The notes under the pieces are model-generated. The model searched no databases, was not told the DNA's origin, and was given only the letters and a program-made list of their open reading frames with translations. A stretch of 64,000 nt of DNA from Macrostomum hystrix (lineage: Eukaryota; Animalia; Platyhelminthes): assembly GCA_950097015.1 (NCBI GenBank), contig CATNEN010000001.1:5394001-5458000 (forward strand), in the 5' to 3' direction. Shown here in pieces: positions 2,115 through 55,891 of the stretch (the stretch's first letter is position 1; each line of letters begins with the position of its first letter). The position numbers and the translations under genes are program-made.

Positions 2115-5100
2115 CTAGAATCCTGGTCGGCTAGTTGCTGTCGGCCTGTTGATGTACGGATTGCAGCCGGGAAAATTGTCCGGACAAACGCACTCAACGC
2201 CCTGATTGGGTGCAGCCAAGCAGATGTACTTGCAGTCGCCGTAGCCGCGACTGTCGGCGCACGGATGCTCGCCGCTCTGAACCTGGTGAGCGGAGGTCGG
2301 ACAGGCGGTATTAGCCACCGTGACGCCCATCAGTCGATTATCCAGACTGCCCAACGGTCCGCGTACGAATGTTCGATTCGAATTGACATTGTGTCCGACA
2401 ACGCGATTTGTGAACCAGTTGGCCAGGTAAAAATCGCCGTCTGAGTAGGCCAGGCCAAATGGCTCTCCAGACCAAGCGAGGCGAACTGGACTGCCGTGTT
2501 CAACGTAGGCGGCGTCTGGCACAGGACGCCAGACACACTGCACGACAGTCTGTGTCGATTCCAGGCGTGCCGTTATGTTAAGAAGAGACCATTTGATGGG
2601 TATTTCGGCGTGAGCATAGCAAACCTCTTCGTTAGGGCTGTCAAAGCGGCGCACAATGTCATTAGGCAGGGAGAAACTGTTGGTGCTGGACAGCTTGACG
2701 TGATTGGCCCCATTCATGCTGGCCATCATGATGCGCGGGTCATTACGATCCCAGTCGGTGTAGTATATTTTTCTGCAAGGATTTAACGGATACTTAGCCT
2801 AGTTGGATAAGATGTGTGATGTATAGATAGCGGCGCTTCTAGAAGCTATGTACAGCAGTTTAAGTCCATGGGCTGTGGACACGACTACCAAGAAAAAAAT
2901 TCGAAGCTGCAATCCGTAATGGGACTACTTGTCTCCGGATATCATTTGAAGACTCACCCAAGAAACGGATCCACAGCAATCCCACGTGGTCTAAAGACTC
3001 CGTCCTTGGGACCGCGAAACAGCACTTTTTTGTTGCTGATGCCCTGTCGATAGGAGATGACGCCAATCTCACCGAATCTCTCGCCTCGAGTCGCCTCCTC
3101 TTTGCTGACGTACTGAGCTGTGTAATAAACATTGTCAGTCTGCCAGTCGACGGCAAGACCTTCAACATTTTCTAAACCGTCGCCGAACGGTACCCAGGAG
3201 CTGCTGGCTGGTCCGCCCATGTCACTGTCGACTGTGTTAGCTTTGTACAGCTTGGAGTGACCATATACTGACCAGATGAGCTGCTTGCGATGACAGTTAT
3301 AGTCCAGCGCAACCACTGGCGACCCGAGCCTCGAGTCGCTCGGACCATCCGACGCCGAAGAAGCTGATGACATGGCAATAAAAAGTCGAGGCTTTTGATC
3401 TCTGTCCTCGCTTTTGGAGTCCTCGGCAGGCATCTGCAGAATGGAGTCACCCTGAGCTATGTAGAGCGTCCGGTCGACCTGTTCGGCAGTCCTACAGAGG
3501 GTCGCCCCTGTGGCTGTTGTCACTTTGAAGCTGCCAGTCGGGCAAGTGCAGACAGACAGCTGAACATGTTCAACTCTTCCGTCAATGGTACGGTGCTCGA
3601 CGGTTTGCTGCTGACATGTGCCCGAGTTGAGCACACAAGCAGAGCAGGAAGCTTGAGTGCGACACTCGGTGTCACCCGTGCCGAAGTAGCCAGTGGAGCA
3701 CACGCATCGATACCTGTTGTCTACCTGGCTGTACTTGCATTCAGAGTTCTGTTTTGAGAAGGAGAAGAGGTTTGTGTTGCATGAAATTTATTTGCTTTAT
3801 AAACAATGTGTAATTGGAATGAAAAAGCCACTAACCTTCACACATCTGTTGTAGAAGTTGCACCCGGGACCATCCGGCTCGCAACGAAGCTTTCCGTCGC
3901 CGCTGAAGCCTTCTCGACAACGGCACTGACGTCGTCCGTCAACTAAAGCGCACTCAGCATTTAAGTGACAGCCGACATTCGGTGTACTGCAGGCCTCTTG
4001 ACGATGCTGGCAGCGACCTTGAATACGCTCCATGCCTGGAACGCACTCGCAGGAGTAGCTCCTGGTTACCAGACTGTACAGACACAGCTCGGTGCCCGGG
4101 TCGCACAACTTCTGCTCAACGCAGCTGGCCTTGTCGCATCGAGTCACACCGTCGCCGGAAAAGCCGCGCGGGCACTGGCAGCCGGGCGTTCTGTAGTTGC
4201 AGAACGCCAACGGGTGGCACTCCTTGCAGGGATTGTCAAGCACAGTCAAATTGACCGTCAGGGTGGCTCCGTATTCGCCCTCCACGTCTGGGAAGCAATG
4301 ATATTGCAGGGCGTCCGATTTGACCACGCGACTAAAGCGAAGCACTTTGCGCTCATTTAGAACGTACTGAACGACTCGATTGCCGTCACTGACCGGTAGA
4401 GGCACTTCTCGGATGTTGGTCCAGATTAGATTGCTCGGTCTCACGGGACCTTGAAGTACTCGGCATGTAATCTCTTGATCTGTTTGGCCCTCGTACAGAC
4501 GGATCTGAAGTACGAGCACTGCCTATGGTGATTCTACGAGGTTCGTGTGACGGAGCAGTAACAAGTCCAATCGTCTAAACAAGATCCCTGCTTTATTTGA
4601 GGCGCAGCCACGGAGAGAAGAACCTCACAAGCACAGTGTACACTGCCTGACGACGAGAAAGTCAGGGCAGATTAACACACCTGTGTGAGCGTGTGCTTAA
4701 GTGCAGATACGTTAAACAGAATTGCCTCTTTGCTGACTACGACTGATGATGCGTCAGTTCCGAAGCTTCCCCTTTTTACCTTTGAAAGGGCACTATGAGA
4801 AACTAAATTCTCGCAGAATACTAGCTCGCACATGACCAGCTTAAATAAAGTAATACGTCGCGAACCTCAGTTTCATTGTCAATCATCAGCTGAGTTTGTT
4901 CCTTGATGCAAGCCGTAGTCTAAAAGGTTAGATTGTTTTGATTGTTTAAATCTAAATAATAAAAATGAATAAAATATGAGTCATGAATTCAAGACGAACG
5001 TTACCTTTGGATTTTGGGACGCATAGCCGAATTGGCAGCGGCAAATGCGACCGTCCGGCCTACTTTCGCAGAGTGCGTTGTCTCCGCACGCCAGCTGGGA

Positions 5101-8100
5101 CGAACCCGAATGACCCGGAGCACATTCGTGGCAGGCGGTCTTGCCGTCGCCGTACTTGCCGTCAGGGCACTTGCACAGCCGAGCTCCAGCGAAACGAATA
5201 TCGGCTTGACAGGTTGCGCCTCTGAGACAGTTGTAATCTGTGACGCAATTGGTGCAGGTCAAGGTCATGGCAGTCTGGTCCAGTCTATCGACGGTATAGC
5301 CCGATCTGCACTGGCAGACACCGGATAGGCACTCCAAAGTGGCATTTAATATCTCCATATCGTCTGGCATGATGCCTTTGTTGCAGTCCTGCATGATTTG
5401 TTATTTATAGTCGCTTTTATGTCAACTGCAGAGTTTGAAACACACAACGAATATATTCATAAACGCAAATTGGAAACTAGTTAGAAAGAGAAAAAAATAC
5501 AACGGGTATCAGCATCAGCAAATATTGAAATTTCGGGTATCAATAATGAAGAATCTGGCAGCTTCCTAGTCCATGGACTTCGCCGTTGGGCACAACAGTT
5601 TTTCTATCTTCTACAATCTACAAAATTACACCAGTGGCCTCGCCGTGGAATCGAGTTCAGGAACCTCTACCCTCGCCCGTTTCGCATTCCAAAAACTGAT
5701 CTTTATTAATCTTACCTGCAAAGAACGGCAGGCAATGCTGCACACTCCTAGTCTATTGGCAGCGAAGCCGTCCCTGCAGACGCAAGCATTGCTAACCGGA
5801 TCGCACAGGGCATTCTCTGAGCAGTCGCTAGGCTGACAAGGCCGAGCTTGGCAGCGACCGGCGGCGACGGTCTTCGGAGGCGGGCAGGTGTCACAGACTC
5901 GACTGGCGTTGCAGAACGCAAACTGGCCAGCATCGGCGCAGGTGGCATTGTCGACGCAAATCTCCGGCAGGCAGACGCTGCCGTTTCCGCGGAAGCCCTG
6001 TCGGCAGACGCAAGTGCCAGCGTTGCCATTGTTACCGGGGCGACAGTCGGCGAATCGGCTGCAGCCGGCCTGCTGACGACAGGCGGCGTCGGTCTCGCGG
6101 ATGCATTTGCTGCTGCTGCACTGGCAGCGATGCTGCACACCAGAGCTCGTGGCCTGCTGCATGCAGGCAAAGCCCTCCACGGAACAAGCGGCCTGTCGTC
6201 GATTTGGAAGCAAAAAAATGTTGTAGATATTTTCACACGAGGGGAATCACCAAGATCCCTGAGCTCGATTCCGCGGCGAGGCCACATTCATTTCGGGCGC
6301 AGCTGCGTTGGGAAGGCTTGAAGGGCTTTTCATGCAATTTACGCCCCTGAGGGCCAATCACCAAGGCAAAGTGAGAGTGTACACTCCCTGACGATGAAAA
6401 AGTCAGGGCAGATTAACACACCTGTGTTAGCGTGTGCCTGCATACGGTATCTGTGTACGTGTGTGCTCAGGAGTCAGCGAAATCGGCAGAATGTCCTCCT
6501 CACTGGATCCGGGTTCAATGTCACCAAAGTATGTGCTATCATTGCCCACAGCCCTCCCGAAAATGTTAATAACTGTAAAGCGATGCGAGAATAACAGTCT
6601 CAGTAGCCCGAACCTGGGGCAGCCGGCAATCGTGACGGTCGGCCACGCAGCGCAGTCCGTCGCCGGAGAAGCCGGAGGCGCAGATGCACTTGTTGAGGAG
6701 ACACTCGGAGTTGACGTCGCACAGTGTTGGACCGCAGATAGGTCGGCAGGAACTTTCCGGCTTTTGACGCCGATAGCCTGGAAGGCATTGACAACGAACC
6801 TGACCTTTCGTCTGTCCGGAATCGTCCGTGACGCACACTGCGCCAGTTCCACAGGCGAGGTCATCGCAGGACAGCCATTTTTTAAGATTGCCAACTAGAC
6901 GAGTAATATGAATTCCTTGCGGCTCGTAGAACATGTCGTAGGTGTGCTCCAGCAGCAGCCGGCCAACTCGAGTTTCTATCTCGCAGCTGGGCGTGAACTC
7001 CCAGCTTTCCGAGAATTCAATCCTCAACTCCAAAACGGGTTGGCCCATGATTAGGACAGTCAGGCTGTAGTTTGCCGGGGAAAGCGACTCGACGCGGACT
7101 AGGTCTCTCTGGACTGACGTAAATTCGTATCGAGTTGTTAGCTTGCGACTGTCTACGATAACCAGATCAATTTCTCTGCTCAGAACGTTGCTGATTGTCT
7201 CAGCCTGAAAAAATGGCAGCAAAAATTAAACGGAGCAAAGCAAGCACACAAAACTCAAGAACACGGGCCTACTTATTTTTGCGAGCGCATCTTCTGAAAT
7301 AAGAATCAAGTCGTCTGCTCTTCAGACCGTTGAGACATTCAGGTCTGAATTCTGGCCTAATGTCAGAATTTTGCCATCAGATCGATCAGTGAGCTAATTT
7401 CACACACCACTATACCCACTATACACAAACTTGTCAATCCTTTAAAATTTATTCGGTGGTCAGACCATCCAAATGTGGACACCTTAATGCCAATTTCTCC
7501 CATTTCGCTGATCAAGCCTCGATATTGGCCTAAACTCAACGATTGCTTGTTGAAGGTCCAGCAGCTCTGTCTAGATAAAAGTCGGTGACCACATAAGTTG
7601 GAGATAATGCAGGCTCATTCGGATGCTGATAAATTTTGAAGGCCTGGCAAGGCCGCACTGAGGCGCAGTGCTAGTTTGTGTATAGGGGTGCATGAAATGC
7701 ACTAGCTCTCATGGGAAAAATCTGAACTTCGGCCAGAACCGTTGAATATCTCAATGGTCTGAAAGGCTGGCGACTTGATTGTTATTTCAGAAGATGCGCA
7801 ACAAAAAGTAGGCCCGTGTTCTTGACTTTCGTGTCAGCAATCAGCACAAAATAGGAAAATCCCCCTTTGATACGAGCGTAGTTCTACTGTTAAAGAGGTG
7901 AGAATTATTAACTTACCTGAATACTGGTGTTGGTAGCCTTCAAGAGCACATTATTCCAAATATATTGCTCGATAGTCCAAATAGCGACTATTGAGGCATT
8001 GTCTCTGGCTATCAATCGAACTCTGCGTCGGAAGGTGTCACCCAGAGCGAACAGGTTCTGTGTGGAGTTGTTGGAACTCACGGCGGTGAGCAGGGCTAAG

Positions 8101-16200: not shown

Positions 16201-19200
16201 TTATATATGCTTCAATACTGCTTGATTCTGATTGGATAAGAGAACTCCATTGTCTATAAAAAACACGCTCCTCGAGTCTGATTGGCTATAAGAATTTTAT
16301 TATGTACAAAAATCAAGCTTATCTATCCTTAAAAATTGTTTGATTCTGATTGGCTAAAAGAACCTCCCTTAAAAATAAAAACACGTTACTTGCTTCTCAT
16401 TGGTCAATTGAACTATGTTATCAATAGAAAACACGCTTCTTGAGTCTGATTGGCTAATAATACTTTCTTATTAAAAAAAGACGATCCGGTTGATTCTGAC
16501 TGGCTAAAGGACATCTTATCGATAAAAGACATTTCTCAAGTCTGATTGGCTAAACTAGTATTCAATGAAACGAGCAGGTCGTTACTGATTGGCTGTAAGA
16601 CTTTTATTACATACAAAAATCAAGCTTATCTATCCTTAAACACTGTTTAATTCTGATTGGCTAAAAGAACCTCCCTTAAAAATAAAAACAAGCTACTTGC
16701 TTCTCATTGGTCAATAGAACTTTCTTATCTATAAAACAACATGCAGCTTAATTCTGAATCGATAAAAGTAACTCCAGGCTTATCTAATAAAACACGCTGT
16801 TTGATTCTGATTGGCTAAGGGAGATTCCTTATCTCTGTGGCACGTATCTGGTTACAAAAAAGTCAACAAACCACCTCACCTAGCCAGTATATCGTCATTA
16901 AAAAGCAGGTGAAACGGCCACTCGTGCTTAAACTTTAATCCAACCCGAGACCAAGAATCTGTAATTGGCGATTGCGCGTCCGTACTAGTAGGCTGACTGT
17001 CTTCAAGCCAGATTTCGAATCGTTTAAACGCCGGATTGTCTTCTAATCCGACAGTTCTAGCGGCCCGATTAAAAAATGAGGCGAGCTGTTGGCCCAGCAT
17101 CCGATGCGGCAGACGATCTAGCAGTGGGCCGGCTAAATCTATGAATGCCAGATAGAATTCACCGCGACCCATCAGGTAGAAATCTTTGATCGCTTGCAAT
17201 TGCTGCTCCAGGTTATAATCTTCCATTAGAAGGCGCCACAGCTGCTCAGTAACATGCGAGCGAACCTGAAGTAGAAAATAAAGGACACGGTGGATTGATT
17301 TTAGAATCTACCACTCTACTCTACAGTCTACAGGTTCAAAATCAATACTTTAATGTACCTGTTCAGAATATACTAATCTACTCTACCCCAAAATATAAAA
17401 CAATCTCATTTTCCTACTCAGAGTCTACTACTCCACCGAGCCTTTTTAACATTTACCTTTCTACTCTTCCTGTTTAAAATTATCTATCACTCAACACTAC
17501 CCGTTCAGAATCTATCACTCTACTCTACTCGTTCAGAATCGACAACTCTACTTTACCCTTCAGAATCTACTACCCATACTCTACCTGTTCAGAATCTACC
17601 ATTCCACTCTACCCGTAAGGAATCTACCACTTTACTCAACCAGTTCAGAATCTACCACTCTACTCTACCCGTTCAGCATCTACCACTCTACTCAATCCTA
17701 CTCAGTATCTACCGCTCTACTCAAACCTACTCGGTATCTACCACTCTACTCAAACCTACTCGGTATCTACCAATCTACTCAAACCTACTCGGTATCTACC
17801 AATTTACTCAAATTTTCTCAGCATTTAACACTCTACTCAAACCTACTCAGCAACTATCACTCGACTAAAACCAACTCAGTATCCAGGACTCTGCTCAACC
17901 TACTCATCTCCAATCATCCCTAAAATGCTGCAACTCACATCCGCCACGAATTCTTCCAAAGCCAACAAATCAAACTGTGTAGCGGCAGCTAAACTATCTA
18001 AACGATGCTGGAACAGTCGCTCCAGGTTGTTAAGAAAAGCGGTCGATCTAGTCTCGTTGAGTCCGAAGCATCTAACGGCTTCGCCAACGAATAGAATCCG
18101 CTGAGCCAAGGTCAACGGCAGATAGGCTGGCAACAATGTAAATTGCAATTCAGCTTTCTGAGCACCCGTGCTCACAATGATACTGCTTGTGTCTGCGGCG
18201 ACTGCAGAACTTCCAGGTGCTACAGGAGCAGTGGATGCAGTAGCAGCAGCAGCTGATGCTGTCGGCTTCTTCTGTTGATCAACAAGGCGAACGAAGAATT
18301 CGGAATATGGATCGTCTAGCTGGCCCTAGTTCGGTTGGGGAAAGGATAATAGATCCTCATATTTTTTTAATCATTTTTCTTAATAAAAATTATCTAGGCA
18401 TTTGAAATCCCAACCTACAAACTGGTATCCCACAATCTTTACTTTAAACTGGAATCCCATAATCCTAACTTTAAACTGGTATCCCAAAATCCCAACTTTA
18501 AACTGGAATCCCATAATCCTAACTTTAAACTGGTATCCCAAAATCCCAACTTTAAACTGGTATCCCATAATCCCAACTTTAAACTGGTATCCCGAAATCC
18601 CAACTTTAAACTGGAATCCCATAATCCTAACTTTAAACTGGTATCCCATAATCCCAACTTTAAACTGGTATCCCGAAATCCCAACTTTAAACTGATATCC
18701 CATAATCCCAACCTACAAACTGATATCCCATAATCTTAACTTCAAACTGGTATCCCATAATCCTAACTTTAAACTGGTATCCCATATTCCCAACCTTCAA
18801 ACTGGTATCCCATAATTCTAACTTCAAACTGGTATCCCGAAATCCCAACTTCAAACTGGCATCCCATAATCCCAACCTACAAACTGATATCCCAAAATCC
18901 CAACCTTCAAACTGGTATCCCATAGTCCCAACCTACAAACTGGAATCCCATAATCCCAACTTTAAACTGGCATCCCATAATCCCAACCTACAAACTGATA
19001 TCCCAAAATCCCAACCTTCAAACTGGTATCCCATAATCCCAACCTACAAACTGGAAGCCCATAATCCCAACTTTAAACTGGTATCCCATAATCCCAACCT
19101 ACAAACTGGAATCCCAAAATCCCAACTTTAAACTGGCATCCCATAATCCCAACCTACAAACTGATATCCCAAAATCCCAACCTTCAAACTGGTATCCCAA

Positions 19201-22200
19201 AATCCCAACCTTCAAACTGTATCCCAAAATCCCAACCTATAAACTGGTATCCCATAATACTAACTTCAAACTGGCATCCCATAAGCCCAACTTCAAACTG
19301 GCATCCCATAATCCCAACTATATCCCATAGTTCTAAATCCTAACCAATAAAACAGATACTATAATTATAACTGACAGCCAACAAAGTGATTTCTAAATGT
19401 AGAGAGTTGTAAAATGTGCTTTTTGCTTAACGCGCTACTTAAAGTAATGCCATAAGGAACTCTTAGCTACAACATTTAATCTATTTTTAGGAATGAGTCA
19501 TACGCTATTTTTAGAAACAGTCATGTGACATGAAACCGGAGAACCGGTTCTTGACAGCTGTGTTTGCTTGAATTCCAAATATGGTAAAGCAAACAATTAT
19601 GACTCATCGGGTTCTGCGTCTGTGTTTGCACTGTATTCCAAATATGGTAAAAACTCACAATCATGACTCACTAAACAAATATGTGTGACCTAAGTAAACA
19701 CCCGGTAGTAGAACCGGTTTTTCCCCAAGGTTTTGCTATAAATACAAGCGAAAATCCGAGCTAAAAATTCAGACTCGGAGCGGTCCACCGGACTTCAAAA
19801 CACCTTACGAAGAAGAGGACTCATCTCTGAGGGAAAGACAAGTGGTAAGCGCTTTATTAGACAGAGTTACTTATTGCTAGCAATAGTTGTTGAATTGAAC
19901 TAAGTTTACGAGAGCCACATATCGTCGATAAATTTGAGAAAGGCCTCCTTGTTTCCTAGGATACATTCCTAGAGGATTATTGATTGATTTGATTTGAGTT
20001 ATCCGTTATCTTTCGGAGGTAACGAAGAAGACGCCCTTCAGGAGGACCTATCAGAGATATACAAGAGAGATTTCAATTGTTCACTAGGGCGCACGTTTCT
20101 ATTGTGAATTCCGAGCTCGAGGAAACCGAAAAGTAATCTGATTCGCTCTCGTCATTTATTGGCCAACAGACAAACTCAAGCAGCTGCCAAGAAGACAAAG
20201 AAGACAAGACTACAAAGACTCAAGAAACGTAGACTCGAAACCTCACGGTCGACCAGAACAAGAAGAAGGAGAACTTACCGGACTACAAGGATCCAGAAGA
20301 CTATAAACTACTTAAGGAAGAAGAAGCAATCGCAGTAAGTGTCACGTGACTGTTATAAATTCCTAGGCAATTGTTCCCCATTGTCTAGAAGTGGGAGTTT
20401 CGTGTGTCTGATCAACACGCAAAACTCTTCAACTGGTGATCTCGCCCAGGCCCTGCAATCAAGCCCAGGCCGAGATACAAAACATTTTTTGCGGTACCCC
20501 TTTCGAATTGTTTTAACATAAAAAAAGGAAAAAAAATTTTTTGCAACTTATTAATTTTGCTTTTGATTTAAAATAATCCACCGTTTCATAAAAATTTTGT
20601 TGCGTCATCCCTCTGAAAAATTTTGCTGTCCCTACCGGATATTGTTTGCACATAAGCCACACGCGTCACTTCGCTCTATTGTTTGCACACCTGGGAATCG
20701 CGCGACTGAACTCACCGGCTCACATTTCAATAACCCATTTTCAGCGTTGAAAGCGGCATACGTTCCCTGCTTTGTATAAATTTTTCTCCCTTGTCCTGAG
20801 TAAATAATTCCTCTGTGTAAACCATTTTCATTTGCTGATACACACGCACACGCACACACACACACACTTTTTATTCACACTAAATCTTGTCAGAGAAGTC
20901 AATCTGGACGAACCCTTGAACATCGATCCAGAACTTGAATTATTTCCGTTCCCAGTTGCGAATATGGCACGAAGAAACTATCAGGTCCATCGTGACATTA
21001 AGGAAACGGTCGGAATGTATACAATGGATAAAGATTTCAACACATTCATTGATCACTTTGATTTGGTCTCACGCGAATATGGATTACAGAATGCAGAGAA
21101 AGCACTCCTACTACCTCCACTGTTACAAGGAACAGCTCGAGAAATCTATGGAAAATTGACAGCTGCAGTACAACAAGATTATCAAGCTCTAGTTACCCAA
21201 CTGAGAGCACAATTCGCACGATGTGGAACAAACAGATCGGTACTCCTTCATAAACTTCATAATCGAAAAATGAGTCCCACTGAGAGTTTTCTCACCTTTG
21301 TTGATGACATCCGTAAGATCGTCAAAGCATTACATCAGCCTCCACCATTGGATCAAGGAGCTCAACCTATAGGACCTGCCGAATCAGCTGCACGAGAAAG
21401 ACAACGTCTTGAAGACCGGGAACAAAGCTTAATACTTCATGTGATTAATAACGCACAGCCTACTTTGCGAGATAGACTGCTGAGAGAAACTATTAACACA
21501 GAGGAACAACTGCTCCGTTGTGGAATGCAATGGGAAGCTAGCGCACCTCTTATGACTACTCATAATAGTGACACGACACAACTAGCAGAACAATTAAGCA
21601 AACTCATGCAGCAACACCAAACTTCTGCTATTGTACCACAACAGCAGAGATATTCCTATCCACAACCACAACAGAGATACTTGCACACATCAACTTGTTA
21701 CACCTGTGGAAGGATCGGTCATTATGCTAGAGACTGCAGATCACGTGGCAACCCACGTTCATACAATGACAATAGACAGACCAATTGGACTCATCCTCCA
21801 AGACAGCCTTCAAACCGTAATTGGACAAATAGTCGACAACAAGATAGCAGACCATCTAATGCCATCGTACCTTATCGTCAACAAAGAAATCCTCCACCTC
21901 CAAGACAACCAACGCAAGTCCGTCGACAATACACTCAAGCTATTGAGCCTGAATACACTCAAACTATTGAACCAAAGTTCAAGATTGAAGATCTTATGCC
22001 AGACTTTTCCGTCAATGTTCTTGATGAACTTGAGAAACAAAAGAAGGAGCAAGAAATCAATGACCTTCATCTGGACAACGATGGTGCAGCCTATATTACT
22101 ATAATCGAAAGCGACCATTCGAAAGAGCCGCCCATGCCACAAAAGGAAACAGAGGATACAGAAGAAAACAATTTTTACTACAACAATGAGTCAACACAGG

Positions 22201-25200
22201 AAATACAGAACGACAACACAAGCAACGACAGCAGCTGCATAATGGGTTCATTGTTTGAAGAATTATCGATTCCCTCGCCAAGAGAAAGTGTTGCCTTCAA
22301 CACCTGTCAACACATTGAACGAAAACAAGTACAACAACAAATCAAAGGATTATTCAAAATTCCAACGATGAGTGATCTTTCAAAAATTCTGCAAAACAAA
22401 GAAGGCATAGATGAATTGTCCACATCCACAGAAAGGAATAATGAGGACCACAGTGCGAAAAATTCACACAACACGTCTGAAGAAAACATCAGCATGCTAC
22501 AAATTTTAGTCGATGACATCGACTTGACAGAGACACCGCCTTCGACACCCAAGTACAAACCTGATCCCGAATACGAAAACATAACCCCTGTCAATTCATC
22601 TGAAGGACAGAATGGACACGATAAAGCAGTGAATACCGAATCATACTACTCGAAGCACGATAGATCTTCTCAGACTAAAAGTGACTACAATACGTCGATG
22701 GAAAATGATGATGATCATATCTATGATGAACCAACAACATGGATCGACATGAGAACGGATACTACAAGTACCGTACTGCAAACTCTCAATACACCATTAA
22801 CATTCAATATGAAACAACCAACCTGGTATAACCAACAAACCAGACCATCAGGATGCAACAACCCATGGCACTTTTCTATGCGCCTTACTCCACCAATTGG
22901 AGAGACAGAAGACCAACGATATTCAATAAACACCAATAAACCGACACCACCAACCAAAGTGAAGAAAAAGAAACGACACATACTGATAAGATGGTTGTTT
23001 TCAGCCATCGTGATGTTGCTTCTCCCGACAGTTGTACCATCTTCAGTGCCCATGATTTGCCCTACTGATGCCAACATCCAACCAGTCATCTACAAAATAC
23101 CAACGGAAATCAAGTGCAGTTACTTTAAAACTAATCAAACAAAACCTATTCCATTAACGATCGATGTCTACAAAGCAAACACAAAGAAACATAGACAATA
23201 TGGTATTATCTGTTTCCGAGATAAACATGAACTAGAAAAGGTTTGGTACATCCAATGGAATCGCATCCGATTCTGGCAAACAGCACTGCCTGTCACACAA
23301 GAAGAATGCCTCCAGTGGAACCAAACATTATTTTCTAAAGATGGAGAACTTCATGCCGATGAGAAAATTGGAAACTCTCAACTCTTCAGGACCAAGAACA
23401 GTGCGAACGGTAGATATGTCCATTGGAACGAATACATATGGCCACGTTACACCACGACAAACAGTTACTTAATCCGGAAAGTCTTGTTTTACCACAATCC
23501 ATTTGAAAACATGGAATCTCTACAATTATCAATGGAAGATTGCAAGTACAATACAGGGTTCTGCGAAACAGCAAAACTCTGGAACGAAGCAGTATGGCAA
23601 GTACCGCTGGCTCCAACATACCATCAAAATTACAGATGGCAAATTGAACATCGACACAGCCCATACTATGAGATTACAGAATACCAACGACAGTACTTCG
23701 TTGCATGGAAAGTTGAACCGAATATTGATTGTAAATTCCAGAAGTACCATACAATAAAAGGAAGTCTACTGTCAAATACCTTCCTTGCGAGTACGTCGGA
23801 TTTTGCCCTAACTTTTCCAAAAAAAGCCAAGTATCTCCAAATTAACTGCAAGGAGAACTCTAAAAAACTTCTAGTGTCTGAACAAGAGATACCGCTCGAA
23901 TTACGTGATATGGATGAGGATACCTTTATGAGACTGGTCAATGGTACTTATTCAACAAGAACCAACACAGTTCGGAAAAGGAGAGAACTACAAAGACCAT
24001 CAATGGTTTCTGCACGACTACTAGCGGCAAAACTCGCAGCAATGGAACATAACCTACATAAAGAACTAAACTACTTGCACAAATCACTGATCCAACTGAC
24101 TTGTAGAATGCACGAAACTGCACTTAACTATGCACGACAAAACTATTATGTCAATCCAACGTCTACATTCAGAAAAATCACAGGGATTCAAGATGCTTTA
24201 GCTATCCCCATCTCTGGCCATCTGTTGATTTACAAATGTGTGCCACTGCATCATTTTAATATCTTGCCATCAAACACATCAACTACGTGCTACGATAAAC
24301 CCAGAATCGAAGCTTACTACAATGGGAAACGAATTCAAGGATTTCTAGATACTGTGCACAATATAATTGTTGGAACTGCAATCCCGAGACCCTGCACTGA
24401 CGCAGTCAACTATTTCAACATTAATAATAAACTACACAAGGTCTCAACAACTGGGCACATTACAAACATCACTGGTATGCAAGCTATTATCGACGAAACA
24501 TACGAACTATCGGACCTACAGCTCAAGATAAATAAGACCACCTATAAACCATTTGGTGACATCAAACTTGACGAAATCACACCAGGATGGACAATTAATG
24601 ATTTTCTTCAAGTTTTTATCGCCCAACGACAGATGATGAACAAGCTCTTTACCCAACACAACCAACAGGACAAAGAACAATCCTTTTCGACAGGATTCAT
24701 CATACATAACGCAATAGGATCCTTTTGGTCGAATAGCTTTCTCGATTTACTCCAAGGAAAAGGAAGTTACTATCAGGGATTCATCTTCTCCAGTGCATGC
24801 ATTGTATGGATTCACCTTGCACTAATGATCTTTATCACAGCAGTACGATGCGTAGCACGAGCCTATCCAGCAAAACAACGGATTTTCCAAATTGACAAAC
24901 AACAAGAAACTACTATATCCACCGAAAAAATTGAAGAAACTCTACTACAAGATCAAAGAAAACAATTATTGCCAACAACACCAAACACACCTAAACAACA
25001 TGATCTATGGGTGAACAAAAATCCAAACACTTTTCTTCTACTTACATTCACTATTGCCTCTTAATTACAATTTTGTCTACAATTACCACTAACTAATACG
25101 TTCGTAGCTGGTAACTATTGCTACTGCTCGGTGATGGTATTCACTCTCACGCTTTAGGAACAAGTTTTAAATCGAATTATCCACTGTTTCACTATGTTTT

Positions 25201-27039
25201 TGTAAATCTATAAAATTCTACCACACAACTGTTTCAACAAATACGTACATATAAGTATATTCTCCTAAATTTTTATGCCAAATTTTAATTCTCAACAATA
25301 AATTCGGGACGAATTTTTTCGTAAAAAAGGGAGATATTGTAGAGAGTTGTAAAATGTGCTTTTTGCTTAACGCGCTACTTAAAGTAATGCCATAAGGAAC
25401 TCTTAGCTACAACATTTAATCTATTTTTAGGAATGAGTCATACGCTATTTTTAGAAACAGTCATGTGACATGAAACCGGAGAACCGGTTCTTGACAGCTG
25501 TGTTTGCTTGAATTCCAAATATGGTAAAGCAAACAATTATGACTCATCGGGTTCTGCGTCTGTGTTTGCACTGTATTCCAAATATGGTAAAAACTCACAA
25601 TCATGACTCACTAAACAAATATGTGTGACCTAAGTAAACACCCGGTAGTAGAACCGGTTTTTCCCCAAGGTTTTGCTATAAATACAAGCGAAAATCCGAG
25701 CTAAAAATTCAGACTCGGAGCGGTCCACCGGACTTCAAAACACCTTACGAAGAAGAGGACTCATCTCTGAGGGAAAGACAAGTGGTAAGCGCTTTATTAG
25801 ACAGAGTTACTTATTGCTAGCAATAGTTGTTGAATTGAACTAAGTTTACGAGAGCCACATATCGTCGATAAATTTGAGAAAGGCCTCCTTGTTTCCTAGG
25901 ATACATTCCTAGAGGATTATTGATTGATTTGATTTGAGTTATCCGTTATCTTTCGGAGGTAACGAAGAAGACGCCCTTCAGGAGGACCTATCAGAGATAT
26001 ACAAGAGAGATTTCAATTGTTCACTAGGGCGCACGTTTCTATTGTGAATTCCGAGCTCGAGGAAACCGAAAAGTAATCTGATTCGCTCTCGTCATTTATT
26101 GGCCAACAGACAAACTCAAGCAGCTGCCAAGAAGACAAAGAAGACAAGACTACAAAGACTCAAGAAACGTAGACTCGAAACCTCACGGTCGACCAGAACA
26201 AGAAGAAGGAGAACTTACCGGACTACAAGGATCCAGAAGACTATAAACTACTTAAGGAAGAAGAAGCAATCGCAGTAAGTGTCACGTGACTGTTATAAAT
26301 TCCTAGGCAATTGTTCCCCATTGTCTAGAAGTGGGAGTTTCGTGTGTCTGATCAACACGCAAAACTCTTCACTAAAGTTCCGAATGCCCACTACCTAAAA
26401 GTGATAGTTTTTAAGCTACAAAATGAAATTCCCTGTTTCTTTATCCTAAAAGAATTATCCAGGTGATAATAACATTGCATCACTTACCTGAAGCATCCAA
26501 TCCCCAATCTGTCTAAACGCTAATCGATGACAATTCTGCAGTAAGGTATCAAACACCACCTGGGCTGTTGGCAGGCCGCAAGGCATACGGTGTACAATCT
26601 TCTCCATCAGTTGAGTACCTCTGGCGCCGCTTCTATCAATCGTGTCCAAAAGTTCGGCCAAGGCTGGGAATAATAAATGGAATTCTTCTAATCGGCATTG
26701 GACATAGTTCAACGATAGATAAGGATCGGCAATTAGTTCGGCTTCGAGATCAATCAGGCGACTCCGATAAGATTCTAGACAATTGTCTAATGCGTCACTA
26801 AATACTTTGGCGTACAAACCGCAGTTGGGCTTATCAGATTCCAAATAATTTGATCGATCGATTATGAATTCTTGAAATCTTATATAGTAAGCTCCTAGCT
26901 GGCATAGTCTATTGATTAGTGGCACCTCGGACGGACTGACAAATGGTAGATTATCAATTAGACGTAGACTACCCGATTGGTTCTGTTGGATTACAGAACC
27001 GGGACAGCCGTAGAGAGCTAGCAAAAGTTCATGTAGCAT
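13252..27039 (-). CDS. TUBGCP4: Gamma-tubulin complex component 4
   Basis: Exons 27039-26488, 18325-17939, 17265-16880, 16020-15744, 13620-13252, phase-consistent. Motifs MLHELLLALYGCPG, LDDPYSEFFV, IKDFYLMGRGE, DNLVYYLQVDV, QLLLRLDFNRFF. Confidence 0.93.
13750..14480. repeat. 21-bp minisatellite (ATAATTCATGCTTCCCCCTCG)
   Basis: Tandem array in TUBGCP4 intron 4. Confidence 0.95.
15074..15712. repeat. 19-21-bp minisatellite (GGGTGAGATTCGATCAGT)
   Basis: Tandem array in TUBGCP4 intron 4. Confidence 0.95.
17300..17900. repeat. Degenerate ~28-bp minisatellite (CAGAATCTACCACTCTACTCTACCCGTT)
   Basis: Fills TUBGCP4 intron 2. Confidence 0.85.
18405..19330. repeat. 27-bp minisatellite (AAACTGGTATCCCATAATCCCAACTTT)
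   Basis: Tandem array in TUBGCP4 intron 1, next to the LTR element. Confidence 0.95.
19398..20431 (+). repeat. 5' LTR
   Basis: Begins TGTAGAGAG, ends CTCTTCA; direct repeat of 25338-26371 with no differences seen by eye; TATAAATA at 19737-19744. Confidence 0.97.
20434..20450 (+). other. Putative tRNA primer-binding site
   Basis: Starts with TGG 2 nt after the 5' LTR (TGGTGATCTCGCCCAGG). The primer tRNA is not identified; it loosely resembles a tRNA-Trp PBS. Confidence 0.7.
20964..25064 (+). CDS. Gag-Env polyprotein: capsid-like region, CCHC knuckle, low-complexity linker, gB-like class III glycoprotein
   Basis: First ATG at 20964 in ORF 20832-25064. Retrotransposon capsid-like N-terminus; CYTCGRIGHYARDC (CX2CX4HX4C, ~21696-21737); basic stretch plus hydrophobic internal signal (~22961-23045); RKRR at 23973-23984; gB-like C..NPT..G..CVP and CY.KP..G.L..PC patterns; TM at ~24777-24845. 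Confidence 0.85.
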   Translation: MARRNYQVHRDIKETVGMYTMDKDFNTFIDHFDLVSREYGLQNAEKALLLPPLLQGTAREIYGKLTAAVQQDYQALVTQLRAQFARCGTNRSVLLHKLHNRKMSPTESFLTFVDDIRKIVKALHQPPPLDQGAQPIGPAESAARERQRLEDREQSLILHVINNAQPTLRDRLLRETINTEEQLLRCGMQWEASAPLMTTHNSDTTQLAEQLSKLMQQHQTSAIVPQQQRYSYPQPQQRYLHTSTCYTCGRIGHYARDCRSRGNPRSYNDNRQTNWTHPPRQPSNRNWTNSRQQDSRPSNAIVPYRQQRNPPPPRQPTQVRRQYTQAIEPEYTQTIEPKFKIEDLMPDFSVNVLDELEKQKKEQEINDLHLDNDGAAYITIIESDHSKEPPMPQKETEDTEENNFYYNNESTQEIQNDNTSNDSSCIMGSLFEELSIPSPRESVAFNTCQHIERKQVQQQIKGLFKIPTMSDLSKILQNKEGIDELSTSTERNNEDHSAKNSHNTSEENISMLQILVDDIDLTETPPSTPKYKPDPEYENITPVNSSEGQNGHDKAVNTESYYSKHDRSSQTKSDYNTSMENDDDHIYDEPTTWIDMRTDTTSTVLQTLNTPLTFNMKQPTWYNQQTRPSGCNNPWHFSMRLTPPIGETEDQRYSINTNKPTPPTKVKKKKRHILIRWLFSAIVMLLLPTVVPSSVPMICPTDANIQPVIYKIPTEIKCSYFKTNQTKPIPLTIDVYKANTKKHRQYGIICFRDKHELEKVWYIQWNRIRFWQTALPVTQEECLQWNQTLFSKDGELHADEKIGNSQLFRTKNSANGRYVHWNEYIWPRYTTTNSYLIRKVLFYHNPFENMESLQLSMEDCKYNTGFCETAKLWNEAVWQVPLAPTYHQNYRWQIEHRHSPYYEITEYQRQYFVAWKVEPNIDCKFQKYHTIKGSLLSNTFLASTSDFALTFPKKAKYLQINCKENSKKLLVSEQEIPLELRDMDEDTFMRLVNGTYSTRTNTVRKRRELQRPSMVSARLLAAKLAAMEHNLHKELNYLHKSLIQLTCRMHETALNYARQNYYVNPTSTFRKITGIQDALAIPISGHLLIYKCVPLHHFNILPSNTSTTCYDKPRIEAYYNGKRIQGFLDTVHNIIVGTAIPRPCTDAVNYFNINNKLHKVSTTGHITNITGMQAIIDETYELSDLQLKINKTTYKPFGDIKLDEITPGWTINDFLQVFIAQRQMMNKLFTQHNQQDKEQSFSTGFIIHNAIGSFWSNSFLDLLQGKGSYYQGFIFSSACIVWIHLALMIFITAVRCVARAYPAKQRIFQIDKQQETTISTEKIEETLLQDQRKQLLPTTPNTPKQHDLWVNKNPNTFLLLTFTIAS
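25323..25334 (+). other. Polypurine tract
   Basis: AAAAAAGGGAGA, 3 nt upstream of the 3' LTR. Confidence 0.8.
25338..26371 (+). repeat. 3' LTR
   Basis: Copy of 19398-20431 at offset 5940; followed by TSD CTAAA. Confidence 0.97.
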
Positions 27040-43712: not shown

Positions 43713-45431
43713 TTAGTTGCGCTGGCTCTCCCGTCCGGCCCAGAGCTGGCCCTTGATCATTTCATCGCAATCGATACCAATCATCGCTTCGCCGAGATCC
43801 TCGCTGACGCGAGCCAGAAACTCCGGATCTTTGTAGTGCGTCACCGCCTGGACCATGGCCTCGGCGCGCTTCTTGGGATTGGCACTCTTGAAGATGCCCG
43901 AGCCGACAAACACGCCATCCACTCCTAGCTGCATCAGCATGGAGACATCGGCCGGTGTGGCCAGACCTCCGGCTGCGAAATTCACCACAGGCAGTCGGCC
44001 GAGACGCTTCACCTCTTTGAGCAGACCGTGAGGCACCTGAAATCAAAGGAGCGTTCTGTTTTACAACATAACATTCTGAAACAAGCAAGGCAATTCTGCA
44101 TGGAGATGAATAGAAAAGGGGCTATCGCATTTGCCTCTATGATCCTTGTGCTCGAATCGATTATGCCAATGAGAGCAACTCCCCACCTATAAAGAAGCAC
44201 AGCCAGGGGGAGGCAAGGGTGTCGCGGCCCCTCCAAATCGGCTGACGAACATGTGGCGCACACTGGTAGTGGCACCTCAAAGAGGCGCGCCAGCCCCCTA
44301 GAAAAAATCCTGGCTACGCTACTGCACCAGTGACGCCGGCCTGTGTGCGTACTTGTTGAGGAGTAAGCGTGATGAGTATCTGCAGAATCGCCTCCCACTG
44401 ACTGCGGGCCTACTGTCACTAAATGATGTCAACCCAGTTTTTAATGAACCAAACATCGCAATGCTCACCTGCAGCTGCTTAGCATAGGAATACAGCTCGT
44501 CATCGTCCATCACTTTGGCCGCTCGCATCTCTCTATTGAGCGCCCTCGCGTGCCGCACCGCCTCGATGACATTGCCGGTGCCGGCCTCGCCCTTCGTGCG
44601 CATCATCGCGGCGCCCTCCGCAATGCGACGAAGCGCTTCGCCCAGATTGCGACAGCCGCAGACGAACGGAATGCGAAAACTGTGCTTGTCGATATGGTTC
44701 TCCGGGTCGGCCGGGGTCAGAACTGTACGTTGCGTTTAAATAAGTAAATTAGTGTTCATTTTCAATAGCCTACTATTACTACGAAGTTTATTTTTTAACT
44801 CACCTTCCGATTCGTCGATCATGTCGACGCCAATCGCCTGAAGAATCTGGGCCTCAGCGAAATGACCGATTCTGGCCTTAGCCATGACCGGAATGGTGAC
44901 GGCGCTCATGATCTCTTTAATGAGCTTCGGATCGGTCATTCGGGCAACGCCGCCCTGTTTGCGAATATCAGCTGGCACACGTTCAAGGGCCATAACGGCA
45001 CAAGCCTGAAATCGTTTTATTAGTGCTGTTTGAGCCTGCACTTTTCCATGTCTGCCAAATGGGAAAAAATTGTGTCCCTGAGCACTTAATTCCCGAGTCA
45101 GCTTTGAATTAGATACCAACACGAGCTGGGGTAAAAACTCGGGTTGGATGTACGTTGCGGTTCGAGCTTTACGAGGGTACACAGCGAACTATTATTATCA
45201 CTACCAAAGGATATAAGCTTCCAGTCTTGTAAATTTTTAATGGACGCTATGTACTTTAAACTTTAAGTTTTCGTAAAGCATGCAAGAAAGAATTCAGCAT
45301 ACCCCGGCTTCCTCGGCTATCTTGGCCTGCTCGGCGTTGACAACGTCCATAACGAGACCGCCTTTGGTCATCTTGGCGAGGCCAGTCTTCACTGTGTACG
45401 TGCCCACAACAGAATCGCCATTGGTAGTCAT
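43713..45431 (-). CDS. PDX1: Pyridoxal 5'-phosphate synthase subunit PDX1 (SNZ/PdxS)
   Basis: Exons 45431-45303, 45005-44804, 44722-44469, 44036-43713, phase-consistent. Motifs [98 protein letters not shown]. Confidence 0.97.
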
Positions 45432-46086
45432 TTTTAGTGTGATGATAATATTCAACTATAATCTATACTTCTCTAGAGGGATTATTCTTTCTACCTAGGA
45501 CTCCGCGCGACTTCGAATTAATTAATATAAGCGAAAGAAAGTGACTCTTCAATCACCTGGGGGGCTAACTCTTTAAAGACTCGACGTGCCGAGGACAGCA
45601 GCAGCTCGGGGAGGGGGGGCAGAAGCCTCGAGGTGGGTCGCTTCTAATTGGACTAGCTGGGCATCGAGAACTGAACCAACCTCGATGCCTGTACAAACAA
45701 CTTCTTCGAGCTAGAATGTGGGAAGGAATTGTGCGGTTGAAGCGAGTGTGCGGCTGAAACGCAAATAGAATGGAAGCCGTTCGGGTGTGCAGTTGTAGCC
45801 ACACAATCCTTGCTTCCGTTCTATTTGATGACGTGCACAGCTTGTTTTCTCTGCGCCGTTTGGCTCAAGTACACTTTAAGCTAGAATTAGCTAGCATTGA
45901 GTCTTTACTTGAGAATCTACGTAGAACCAGTCAATAAAAAATACGTGTTGACTTAAAAATCTCTAAAGTTAAACCGTGAGAAATCTGCATTTGATCAATC
46001 CAATTTATAAAATTGTGCAAACACGAACAGGAGAAGACCTAAAAGCATTTTTCTGGTGCCAATCTAGTCGCAGTTTAGAAGCAATC

Positions 46087-49000
46087 ATGCCTCAGTTGAA
46101 AGTTGGCCTGCTAGCTATTCAGGGAGCTTTCATTGAGCACCGCAGTCTCCTGGCTGCGGCCGCAGAGCGGCTTCAGCTGCAGAGAAACTTTCCAGACGGC
46201 TGCTCCGTCGAAGCAGTTGAAGTGCGTCGCGGAGATCAGCTGACTGTAGATTTGGACGCACTCATTATTCCTGGCGGCGAAAGTACCACGGTGGCCAAAT
46301 TCATGCTGCAGAATGGTCTTCTTGATGCCTACAAAATCTGGTTTAATGGTAAGTTAAGAACATACTAAGCTACCTGAGGTTTGAAGTCCTCTTGAATTAA
46401 GATGCTAAATATTACTCAAAAAGCTTCTAAATAGTTTTCGAATCGTAGCTCATTGGAATTAATTTTTGTCCCTGAGCAATTGACACTTGATTCCCTTGTG
46501 TCCAGTTCACCCAACTGTTGAATGGGATAGCTATTAACTTTAACTTTTTTTTAACTTTGATTACACCTGCCCCAATCGGGCCAGATGTGCAGCCGACAGC
46601 ACAGCCGCAGCTATTGCGCGGCGCATCTGAAGGCTGCGTACAGCTGTTCAGTCCATGGACTGGGGGGACGCCACACCCACCTTCAATTATCCCAGCTGAT
46701 GCTGGTACCCATTTAACAGCTGGGTGAACTGAAGCAATGCAGAGTTAAGTGTCTTGCTAAAGGACACAAATTGTTTCAGTGGAGTCGGGAATCGAACCCC
46801 CGACCTTCAAGTCGTTAGTCCGACGCCCTAACCACTAGGCTACAACCTCTACGGGATAGCTATAAAATACGGCTGTGCTACTGGATGAGCATATGGCCCT
46901 TTGTGTGATTTCGATATATTTACCATATGCAATTATTACAAAGCATTACCTGACTGACATTGCAGAAACCAATCCGAAGGCCATTGTGTGGGGCATCTGC
47001 GCCGGCTTGATAGCTTTATCAGACAATGTTGTTGACATGAAAACTGGCGGGCAAACTTTGGTTAGTAGCTCGTACGAAATTAAACTGAAGAAGTTCACTT
47101 ATTCATGCAAACTTTATTATCCCGACGCATCTTTCATTTGGAACTTCATAATTTCATAATTAAGCTGGCCTTATAGAGCAGAGTTCAGAGTTCAGATATT
47201 CGAAACATAAAATAAACAAATATCATCCAAACAATAAGTCCATCTAGATTAGACTCCATCAACCCATCGCAGACCCAAAAAACCGCTGTAGAACCCACAA
47301 ACCCTTTGTAGAACCCACAAACCCTTTGTAGAACCCACAAACCCTTTGTAGAACCGACAAACCCTTTGTAGAACCCACAAACCCTTTGTAGAACCCACAA
47401 ACCCTTTGTAGAACCCACAAACCCTTTGTAGAACCCACAAACCCTTTGTAGAACCCACAAACCCTTTGTAGAACCCACAAACCCTTTGTAGAACCCACAA
47501 ACCCTTTGTAGAACCCACAAACCCTTTGTAGAACCCACAAACCCTTTGTAGAACCGACAAACCCTTTGTAGAACCCACAAACCCTTTGTAGAACCCACAA
47601 ACCCTTTGTAGAACCCACAAACTCATTTTTGAACCCACAAACCAATTGTAGAACCCACAAACCCACTGTAGAGTCCACAAACCCATTGTAGAACCCACAA
47701 ACCCATTGAAGAACCCACAAACTCATTTTTGAACCCACAAACCAATTGTAGAACCCACAAACCCACTGTAGAGTCCACAAACCCATTGTAGAACCCACAA
47801 ACCCATTGAAGAACCCACAAACCCATTGTAGAACCCAAAAACCTTTTTGTAGAACACACAAAACCCTTTGTATAACCCACAAACCTATTGTAGAGCCCAC
47901 AAACCCATTTTAAAACCCACAAACCAATATTAGAACCCACAAAAACATAGTTGAACCCCAAAACCCATTTATTCCTAGCAAAACCTCACAAACTCACAAA
48001 CACATCCCACAAAGTCATTGCAATATTGCATAATCCACTTCTACACGTCGCACTGTGACACAAAATATTGCATAAGAGATTGCAAAGCGCTGATTTAGTC
48101 TAATTGTGTCTCTAATTAGTGTGTTTCTAAAGTTCAACGTGCCAGCTCGTTTCTGAAAGCGTTCAGCCAGTTGCTACTGAAGCCTCGATGCGATTATCTG
48201 TTTATCGGAGCGAATCTAAATAGTCAAAAAAGATCAAAGACCAGTCCCGCCAAAGTTTAGTTATGCTTGGCAGCGATTTTTGCAACTAAAAACCTATTAA
48301 ATATTCTGAATTTCCAGAAGACTGGTTTAGTCTTCTAGTTACGTTTAGTAAGACTAGTCACTTCGTCTTAGTGTTTATCTTTTTCAGATTGTTGAATTCG
48401 AAGTCAAATAGTTGGTACTAGAAACTATCTTCAGTATATAATCTTAATTAAAACATTATATCATTTTAGTTGTTCCGACAGTGAAAAGTCAGTATAACGT
48501 TAAAGTTTACGTCACGAGTTAAAATCCAATGCTAATGTAAACGAATTAAGTAGCTAATTGGTTCACCCTGCAGTGTAACATTGAGTGTCATTAGCTTTAC
48601 AAATCGTGAAAATCATGAAAAAATATAGCGTGAAGTGGAGCAAATATTCTGATAAGAAACGTTACCAGTGGGTTTTTAAATCGGTTTATTGGTTTATAGA
48701 TGTATTTTCTTCATTGTATAATTTTGGAGTGATTATGCGGTCTACATATTTTGAATGAATGAATTCATTCTATCTTGCTAACTTGCTAAAATACCCATAA
48801 CTTTGAGCCATAGACATTCGGAGAGGGCAAAGATGATGCATTGTACACTTTTGGAGGGGTTTTTTCCCAGCCACCAATGAAGCCTGATTGTTGCACGCCT
48901 TTACTGTCTATGTCCCGAACCCCGCCAGATCCTGCGGGGTCTTACAGCCTTCCCCAAACTGAGTTCTCTTGCTGCCCCAAGTCAGGCGGTCTACTTTTGG

Positions 49001-54200: not shown

Positions 54201-54652
54201 CAAGTCCACGATGTGGACGGGCGGCCAAGCGCGAGTCGCTAACCGTGGAGTCCGTGTGGAGCCGCATTAACAAGCCGCGACCAAGCGCTGACTCTAGCAA
54301 TTCTTCAGCGAACGGACACGAGAGGACACCCAGTCCATCGCAGAGCGTCATCAGCCAGTGCAGCGGTTTTGGTCTCGAGCATCTTTACAGCGGCAGCGGC
54401 GGCAGCGGGGGCGTCTGCGGTAACGGCGGCAATGGCGGGGGAAGCGGCTGCGGCGGTGGTTTCGGAGGATTCAACAGTTTCAACAGTAGTCCGCCAGCTA
54501 GCAGCAAAGCCAGCGCCGTTGTAGAGTATGCTGACGGCGCAACGCAAACGGACGGGTCTGCGGAGCCTGCGTCAGCTGCGGAAGAAGCAACCGAGTCTCC
54601 TACGGTGGCACCTCCTGTTTGTTATTTTGTGTATGAGGAGTCTTATGTATAA
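51260..54652 (+). CDS. Aminergic class A GPCR, most like alpha-type octopamine (OAMB) / alpha1-adrenergic receptors, with a long C-tail
   Basis: Exons 51260-52163, 52259-52716, 52814-53142, 53221-54652, phase-consistent. Motifs GN (TM1), SLAVSD, TM3 Asp ([10 protein letters not shown]), [29 protein letters not shown]; ends ESYV. Confidence 0.9.
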
Positions 54653-55525
54653 ATCTAAACTTCTCTATGCTTGCTGAGGAAAAATACGAAATTGTTCCCG
54701 AGTTACGGATTCCGAAGCTGCATTGTTTCCGGAATGTAAATATTTTTTTTCTGTTCAAATTAAAGATAGGCAGCCTGAAGACAAGACAGACAGATCTGCA
54801 AGCATATTTCTATGACAATTTTACTTGCTTTAATCGCACATTTGAATTTTTAATCGGATACCCTACCATTTTTGTCCTGAGCAATAAAAAGCAAAAAAAT
54901 CTGACAAACAGACTTCATTCATTAAAAAAAACTGCATGTTCCCATATTACTACTTATAATGACTGAACTTTTCAGCAAACTTTGAAGCACTTTTTTGCTT
55001 GCGCGAATTTAGTAAAGAGAAGTAAACATACTTATTTATAGGTTTTCATTTTTTAGGTCACGATGATTTTATCGAGACTCAGCTTGCGATGACTGCTTAT
55101 CGAAGGCGAAATAGACTCGTAATTAATGTGTGAACATATTTCCGCAAGCCAAATAACTGCACCCTATTATTAGACATCATAAATTATCGTAAACTGGCTG
55201 ACGATTTATAGTTTCGATTTTAGCTTTTCGTAACTAAAAAAAAATCTAGAATGCTTAATATTATCTTTCTAACGTGACCATTAGCCCGGATCGATGCATC
55301 CGGTTATGTTCTGCGGAGATAGGCAAGAGAATTGTCCAGGCTGAGATATCCCCCAAGCTTATAGAATTTCAGTATTAAAATCGGATTAAGTCCAGAAGTG
55401 CAATCCTACTGCTAGGATCGCAAAGCGAGATAACTGCGGTGAGGGAAGGGAAAGCAAAGTTGAGAATTTAAGAAACTGCTATGAAATAATGATTATATTG
55501 ATACTATTTGCATAAGGTGGATTTA

Positions 55526-55891
55526 ATAATAGTAATAATAATTACAAGAGGGCTGCGGGCAATGGTACATCGTTTTAGTGACATTAGACCCGCAGCCAGC
55601 GAGGAGGCAATTCTGCCCATTTCACTGACTCCTGAGCACACACGCACACAGATACTGTACGCAGGCATATGCTCACACAGGTGTGTACATCTGTCCTGAC
55701 ATTCTTATTGTCAGGCAGTGTAAATTTCACTGTGCCTTGGAGGTTGGCCAATCAAGGGCGTAAATTGCACGACAAGCCCCCAAGCCTTCTCTCCGCGGCT
55801 GCGCCCCAAATAAATGTGGCCTCTCCGTGGAATCGAACTTAGGGACCATGGTGCGAGATGCAAACGCGATAACCGCTCTGCCACCGACCCC
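55526..55891 (-). mobile_element. Full-length tRNA-derived SINE (family A)
   Basis: On - strand: head GGGGGTCGGTGGCAGAGCGGTT (A box) and GTTCGATTCC (B box); (TTA)n-like tail; 15-bp TSD CATAAGGTGGATTTA at 55511-55525 and 55892-55906. Confidence 0.9.

Follow-up and report, generated by a model that had tools for sequence, protein, structure and literature searches.

How an LTR retroelement comes to carry gag and env in a single open reading frame with no pol, and whether such an element is an active satellite or a damaged copy, is the question raised by a locus of the flatworm Macrostomum hystrix. The window, i.e., the whole stretch of DNA that was analyzed, is 64,000 nucleotides long, and all coordinates below are positions in it. 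Our preferred reading, to which we assign a probability of roughly 70%, is that the element represents one defective member of a multi-copy family of gag-env-pol Ty3/gypsy errantiviruses and that a deletion at a 9-bp microhomology probably removed its pol.

A recent insertion with intact ends

The insertion and its immediate surroundings comprise the following features.

18325..26486, - strand: host intron (GT...AG) of a gamma-tubulin-complex-component gene, with Pfam GCP_N on both flanking exons
19393..19397, + strand: left target-site duplication, CTAAA, 5 bp
19398..26371, + strand: Gag-Env LTR element
19398..20431, + strand: 5' LTR, TG...CA, 1034 bp, 0 mismatches to the 3' LTR
20434..20445, + strand: primer-binding site (PBS), 12 nt, with the same letters and offset as in Mlig_errantivirus_2
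20446..20963, + strand: 5' untranslated leader with a presumed packaging signal, assigned from position only
24984..25337, + strand: 3' UTR including the PPT at about 25323-25334, from contig comparison and window letters
25338..26371, + strand: 3' LTR, identical to the 5' LTR in the LTR alignment
26372..26376, + strand: right target-site duplication, CTAAA, 5 bp

The exact match between the two LTRs ends at both LTR borders, and CTAAA stands on both flanks. The original prediction had proposed a recent insertion with identical 1034-bp LTRs, a CTAAA duplication, a PBS, and a PPT; all of these were seen, and the insertion is very young and intact-ended. The PBS begins 2 nt past the 5' LTR, the purine run AAAAAAGGGAGA, which is the PPT, adjoins the 3' LTR on its upstream side, and the interior between the LTRs is 4906 bp. 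The pol-less element has kept its cis parts, namely, the LTR, PBS, PPT, and both UTRs, and a strict pattern search of the LTR returned no heat-shock elements.

The element lies antisense inside a host intron of 8162 nt, and one contig of run X2 joins 18324 to 26487 in the manner of a spliced transcript; runs X2 to X5 are not recorded as RNA. Many introns across the window are packed with minisatellites with units of 14 to 33 bp. Elsewhere in the window, SOR/SNZ (PDX1-like) exons at 44319-45188 (-) lie head to head with a SNO (PDX2-like) piece at 45973-46368 (+), and by similarity the two appear to form a vitamin B6 synthase pair in an animal genome; to our knowledge, this pair is missing in most animals. 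A 482-codon stop-free frame with no Pfam match (53204-54652, +) lies behind a rhodopsin-type GPCR gene, and an inverted repeat (55523-55749 and 60515-60740; 176 nt, 89% complementary, 4765 nt apart), with related copies at 6380-6528 and 4639-4706, represents either a dispersed repeat or transposon ends.

A Gag-Env ORF with a gB-type envelope

A single uninterrupted ORF at 20964-25064 (+) encodes 1366 aa and contains a CCHC, a linker, and a gB-like Env, in agreement with the original prediction of one 1366-codon ORF with CCHC, linker, and envelope-like regions. Its regions are as follows.

20964..21950, + strand: Gag, with a capsid-like region and one CCHC knuckle (aa 244-259), from Pfam and homologues
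21951..22970, + strand: acidic, S/T/N-rich linker; an in-frame linker of variable length is also present in relatives
22977..23063, + strand: internal signal-anchor segment (aa 672-700) after a KKKKR patch, from hydropathy, with putative signal-peptidase cleavage
23049..24770, + strand: gB-type class III fusogen ectodomain, 12 Cys, RKRR at aa 1004-1007, from Pfam, profile, model, and alignment
24774..24860, + strand: Env membrane anchor (aa 1271-1299), from hydropathy

The CCHC (Pfam E = 8.8e-7) was the sole Pfam match of the whole-ORF search, and no capsid family in Pfam scored above its own cut-off for Gag. Gag is 51% identical to that of relative P0012 and 31% identical to that of M. lignano P0013 (pairwise E = 1e-24). 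The Gag-linker-Env fusion recurs in P0012, whose linker is shorter; the linker is a family feature and not the site of the missing pol. At the other end of the ORF, the stop codon lies at 25062-25064, and the first 78 nt of the 3' UTR are read as 26 extra residues; the final 26 codons are read-through into the 3' UTR.

Following the linker, the ORF encodes a hydrophobic segment, an ectodomain split by RKRR, and a second hydrophobic segment, and aa 696-1269 constitute a class III fusogen resembling herpesvirus gB. Env scored barely over the cut-off for Pfam PF24664 (27.1 bits; cut-off, 27), a 57-sequence Env profile reached herpesvirus gB with an E value of 2.5e-17, and Foldseek searches with the structure model (mean pLDDT, 77.5) recovered gB (E = 3.7e-19) and nyamivirus-like glycoproteins (E = 1.6e-24), with low whole-chain TM-scores (0.25-0.35; gB, 0.25). 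The best BFVD matches include a nyavirus glycoprotein. All 12 ectodomain cysteines of the element are kept in the M. lignano protein P0010.

Absence of pol and pol-bearing relatives

The original prediction had reported no protease, RT, RNase H, or integrase, and none of the six frames yielded pol: in tblastn, the pol parts of nine relatives reached an E value no better than 0.039, and a pol profile built from the same nine gave an E value of 0.75 on the element, versus 1491 bits on a control. The same searches found no pol remnant in the linker or UTR. The motif matches FVDD and DSG were rejected as traces of pol, being located in Gag or off-frame. As defined in PMC13524379, an intact errantivirus carries a continuous ORF for a Ty3/gypsy POL that includes complete RT and integrase, which is lacking here; with six frames free of pol, the element is therefore a defective derivative and not an intact member, and, with LTR, PBS, and PPT retained, it has the make-up of a non-autonomous element.

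The first protein search gave one match among 3361 candidates, a Macrostomum lignano polyprotein, and a longer member of that cluster, P0010 (PAA64473.1), is the closest named relative, with 59% identity to Env aa 696-1343. Past Env, the same ORF of P0010 continues into PR (760), RT (1178), RH, and IN (1531), and its coding sequence beyond the aligned end amounts to 3609 nt. The M. lignano proteins P0010, P0002 (ALD16272.1), and P0013 (PAA86625.1; Env identity to the element, 28%) have the signal anchor, ectodomain, furin site, and anchor ordered as in the element. Unlike the element, all three continue into PR-RT-RH-IN within the ORF and have tails with PTAP/PSAP and PPxY or YPxL-like motifs.

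Among 84 Env matches in the 50% library, a CCHC was found upstream of Env in the same ORF in 29, a pol part was detected by probes downstream of Env in 22, and the full order CCHC-Env-RT-IN was found within a single ORF in 5. The pol probes were silent in 62 of the 84, many of which are short pieces, and Pfam searches of 24 of the 84 revealed a protease or integrase upstream of Env in P0039, P0081, and P0086 that the probes had missed. In the nearest relatives, the pol domains are of the Ty3/gypsy type and follow Env, and Pfam gave no match to a Pao peptidase; no relatives were found among viral and metagenome contigs. Because relatives carry the CCHC-Env-pol order in a single ORF, the Gag-Env fusion would be the inherited 5' part of a Gag-Env-Pol polyprotein and not a new arrangement.

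In the available part of their survey, Chary and Hayashi (eLife 2026, PMC13524379) describe nematode, bryozoan, and flatworm elements that have the GAG-ENV-POL order and a gB-type Env, and list 16 copies of Mlig_errantivirus_2, with an 8864-nt interior, in M. lignano. The element has the identical 12-nt PBS and 2-nt offset of Mlig_errantivirus_2 and shares the gB-type Env, the position of env after gag, and the multi-copy family with the HSV/gB-type errantiviruses in the portion of that survey consulted (PMC13524379); it differs from Mlig_errantivirus_2 in its interior (4906 versus 8864 nt), its LTR (1034 versus 863 bp), and its lack of pol. The interiors differ by 3958 nt, near the 3609 nt of P0010 past the aligned end, and P0010 may be the Mlig_errantivirus_2 entry, as the supplement coordinates allow. 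The element has LTRs, a tRNA PBS and a PPT, a homologous Gag, and a gB-type Env between TM segments; Env upstream of pol is seen in the relatives and, for the element's own family, is deduced from the point at which contigs diverge. On these similarities, it appears to belong to the already known gag-env-pol flatworm errantivirus lineage. As described in the available text, the pipeline of PMC13524379 retained an element only when all three ORFs were present, a design that leaves out pol-less copies.

Family contigs diverge from the element at a 9-bp junction

The window was compared with contigs from six of the eight runs containing the stretch, representing two studies. Inside the element, family contigs are 99.3 to 99.6% (about 99.5%) identical to the window where long pieces could be compared; X1 shows 5 differences in 1250 and 6 in 1212, and X6 shows 22 differences and 3 gap letters in 3362. 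One further feature emerged from this comparison.

24975..24983, + strand: deletion junction, a 9-bp stretch common to env-side and UTR-side contigs, ending at codon 1340

In three of four runs (X1, X3, and X8), env-side contigs match the window as far as 24983, where codon 1340 ends, and then continue for 413, 183, and 900 nt, respectively, unlike the window. From the other side, UTR-side contigs of X1 (three variants) and X7 enter the window at 24973-24975 from other sequence; env-side and UTR-side contigs overlap by 9 bp. A clean deletion relative to near-identical full elements, the pattern that the original prediction had named as speaking against its own reading, is what the divergence at 24975-24983 presents. 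The pol-bearing kin sharing LTR, gag, and env that had been anticipated are present as near-identical longer copies in the runs, in which the content of pol is presumed. The family also occurs in run X7, which carries the label of organism B (X1 to X6 and X8 are organism A), with a more diverged 3' UTR.

No contig spans the junction in any of the four runs among the 12 of 16 records listed, and the X1 depth over 24830-24972 equals that of its one read-through contig alone, so the other four records do not bridge the junction; in X2 and X6, no bridging record is among those listed. The depth of the env-side contig (421.7) is close to the sum of the three UTR variants (455.6), and X1 UTR variants at single-copy depth survive (75-87 versus a flank of 80); this speaks against a widespread pol-less form but leaves room for one or two copies. 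In our view, assemblers remove a one-copy connector and keep a multi-copy one. Since contigs drop rare variants, and those of X1 also lack the element's own letters at 24916-24922, the absent junction proves little for a single copy. The X1 record over the right flank includes 28 LTR letters, below the 31-letter rule, so X1, possibly the window's own source, is not demonstrated to carry the insertion. The 3' UTR cover of X6 and X8, with 5 of 10 values near zero or absent in the bins shown, was excluded. Splicing was rejected as a cause of pol loss, as GT or GC...AG ends are obtained on neither strand, whichever register of the 9-mer is taken.

Depth in X1 is 3000 to 4500 over the LTR, 390 to 750 over the element interior, and 80 in the flank, and the ratios to the flank (env, about 5x; LTR, about 40-55x) serve as rough hints. 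Contigs of X2 and X7 join the window at 25290 from other sequence. We read the X1 depth and these contigs as further subfamilies or solo LTRs that share the LTR and the last 48 nt before the 3' LTR.

In P0010, the point matching the break is PTTP at 708-711, about 50 residues before the protease motif, and its late-domain-like motifs begin there. Motifs of the PTAP/PSAP, PPxY, and YPxL-like types occur between the Env anchor and protease in P0010, P0013, and P0024, two in each, in tails picked by eye, a count reached by 25, 41, and 3 of 5000 shuffles, respectively; the tail of P0091, likewise picked by eye, has one such motif, reached by 811 of 5000. The element ORF has no late-domain-like motif of this kind, with neither PTAP nor PPxY anywhere in it, and if such motifs drive budding, the element would not bud well alone. 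The Caenorhabditis angaria proteins P0091 (CAI5439935.1) and P0100 (CAI5449993.1) end about 146 residues after the start of the Env anchor and represent either pol-less copies or elements with separately framed pol.

Origin of the pol-less element

Because family contigs leave and enter the window at 24975-24983 without bridging, the element is most likely a deletion derivative. Judging from homology and size, the missing stretch would be pol, about 3.6 to 4 kb. The junction is likely confined to one locus; no second pol-less copy was seen in the contigs of four runs, a kind of record that loses rare variants.

From hydropathy and domain order, the parent would produce one polyprotein whose Gag stays cytosolic. 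The first hydrophobic segment would thread Env into the ER, where signal peptidase would cut, furin would cut Env at RKRR, and the second hydrophobic segment would serve as a stop-transfer anchor with Pol on its cytosolic tail. A template switch between the two 9-mers in reverse transcription, or microhomology repair after insertion, would then have removed pol; the data fit both. In the former case, integration could have relied on the enzymes of the parent itself, and a helper in trans is thus not required for one insertion. Since pol comes last, a deletion starting in the tail leaves Gag-Env open, and the intact ORF needs no selection. The element has identical LTRs yet differs by ~0.5% from the commonest contigs, a combination that would be compatible with a separate sub-lineage as well.

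Amplification in trans would make the element part of a low-copy non-autonomous subfamily whose deleted RNA is co-packaged with full-length RNA and copied by its enzymes, and that might thereby supply extra Gag and Env in a system whose three proteins are otherwise made one to one. The retention of every visible cis element, the occurrence of near-identical longer copies, with presumed pol, in the same runs, and the two 1102-aa C. angaria Gag-Env proteins, which lie on different contigs and end without a protease, are consistent with this, and trans-complemented defective ERVs are described as well documented in the available part of PMC10924933. We nevertheless regard such a subfamily as unlikely: the junction is bridged in none of the four runs (12 of 16 records listed) despite the survival of single-copy-depth UTR variants in X1, PTAP and PPxY are missing from the whole ORF whereas P0010 has both just past the matching point, and the 25 best-supported ORF differences listed against contigs number 5, 12, and 8 at codon positions 1, 2, and 3, respectively, and thus show no excess at the third position, a weak argument. 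It is distinctly unlikely that pol-less Gag-Env copies of 1:1:1 single-ORF elements, amplified in trans, raise the ratio of capsid and envelope to enzyme, with the element and the C. angaria pair as cases; if they do, a second genome would accomplish what retroviruses do by frameshift.

The same absence of the junction from the contigs of four runs would be expected if a chimeric read or graph error had fused env to the 3' UTR of a full-length insertion. Such contigs can lose a one-copy junction, however, and the window has no N, an open ORF, and two exact LTRs. Nine shared bases are far below what an overlap collapse needs, and retroviral reverse transcription commonly generates short-homology deletions; we consider an assembly artefact very unlikely. 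Most improbable is a separately evolved bipartite system or a Gag-Env kept by the host to block the family through receptor interference or dominant-negative particles. In its favor, the Gag-Env ORF is uninterrupted and retains the full set of 12 ectodomain cysteines seen in P0010, and co-option of an envelope against its parent element has been proposed, in the part of the source available, for mosquito Anakin glycoproteins (PMC7642597), but, with identical LTRs and longer copies that are about 99.5% identical, there has been no time for the element to evolve separately or for co-option to become visible, and those copies themselves retain gag and env, so there is no pol-only partner to postulate. 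Two readings in the original prediction, an active satellite-type ERV and one half of a bipartite system with a pol partner, accordingly give way to the deletion derivative: Gag-Env is the normal 5' part of a single-ORF gag-env-pol lineage, and the pattern is that of a clean deletion relative to near-identical longer copies.

Comparison with known systems and implications

The nematode NERVs, which Sacco et al. are said to have described in 2022 in J Gen Virol, reportedly have Env before pol and an envelope related to negative-strand RNA virus glycoproteins, as here, but are complete elements of nematode hosts. EAV-HP is one of the pol-less or trans-complemented ERVs. Others, in the portions of the sources available, are grouse alpharetroviral ERVs with the structure LTR-gag-env-LTR (PMC10820513) and the trans-complemented bovine D-type ERVK, ETn/MusD, and recKoRV (PMC10924933). 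As far as these sources describe them, vertebrate elements of this kind resemble ours in having an internal deletion, in keeping the cis ends, and in needing enzymes from a full-length relative; in contrast, they derive from gag-pol-env viruses and exist in several copies, whereas the element's fusion needs no frame rejoining and any amplification of it would be hypothetical. Anakin elements combine Bel/Pao gag and pol with a chuvirus-like glycoprotein downstream, unlike the element's relatives, which are Ty3/gypsy with Env upstream. A literature search outside subscription journals for pol-less gag-env retrotransposons returned vertebrate cases only, none among gag-env-pol elements, and a term search of the available text of Zhou et al. 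2015 (PMC4604429) found no mention of these elements.

Overall, the locus adds a young, probably active gag-env-pol family in a Macrostomum host. With the gag-env-pol order, an ordinary deletion yields a neat Gag-Env element resembling a satellite virus, and surveys that require RT would overlook pol-less copies of this sort. If the junction proves to be multi-copy, it would represent a naturally occurring enveloped retroelement that depends on a helper, in an experimentally tractable flatworm, and would be relevant to how protein ratios are set in single-ORF elements.
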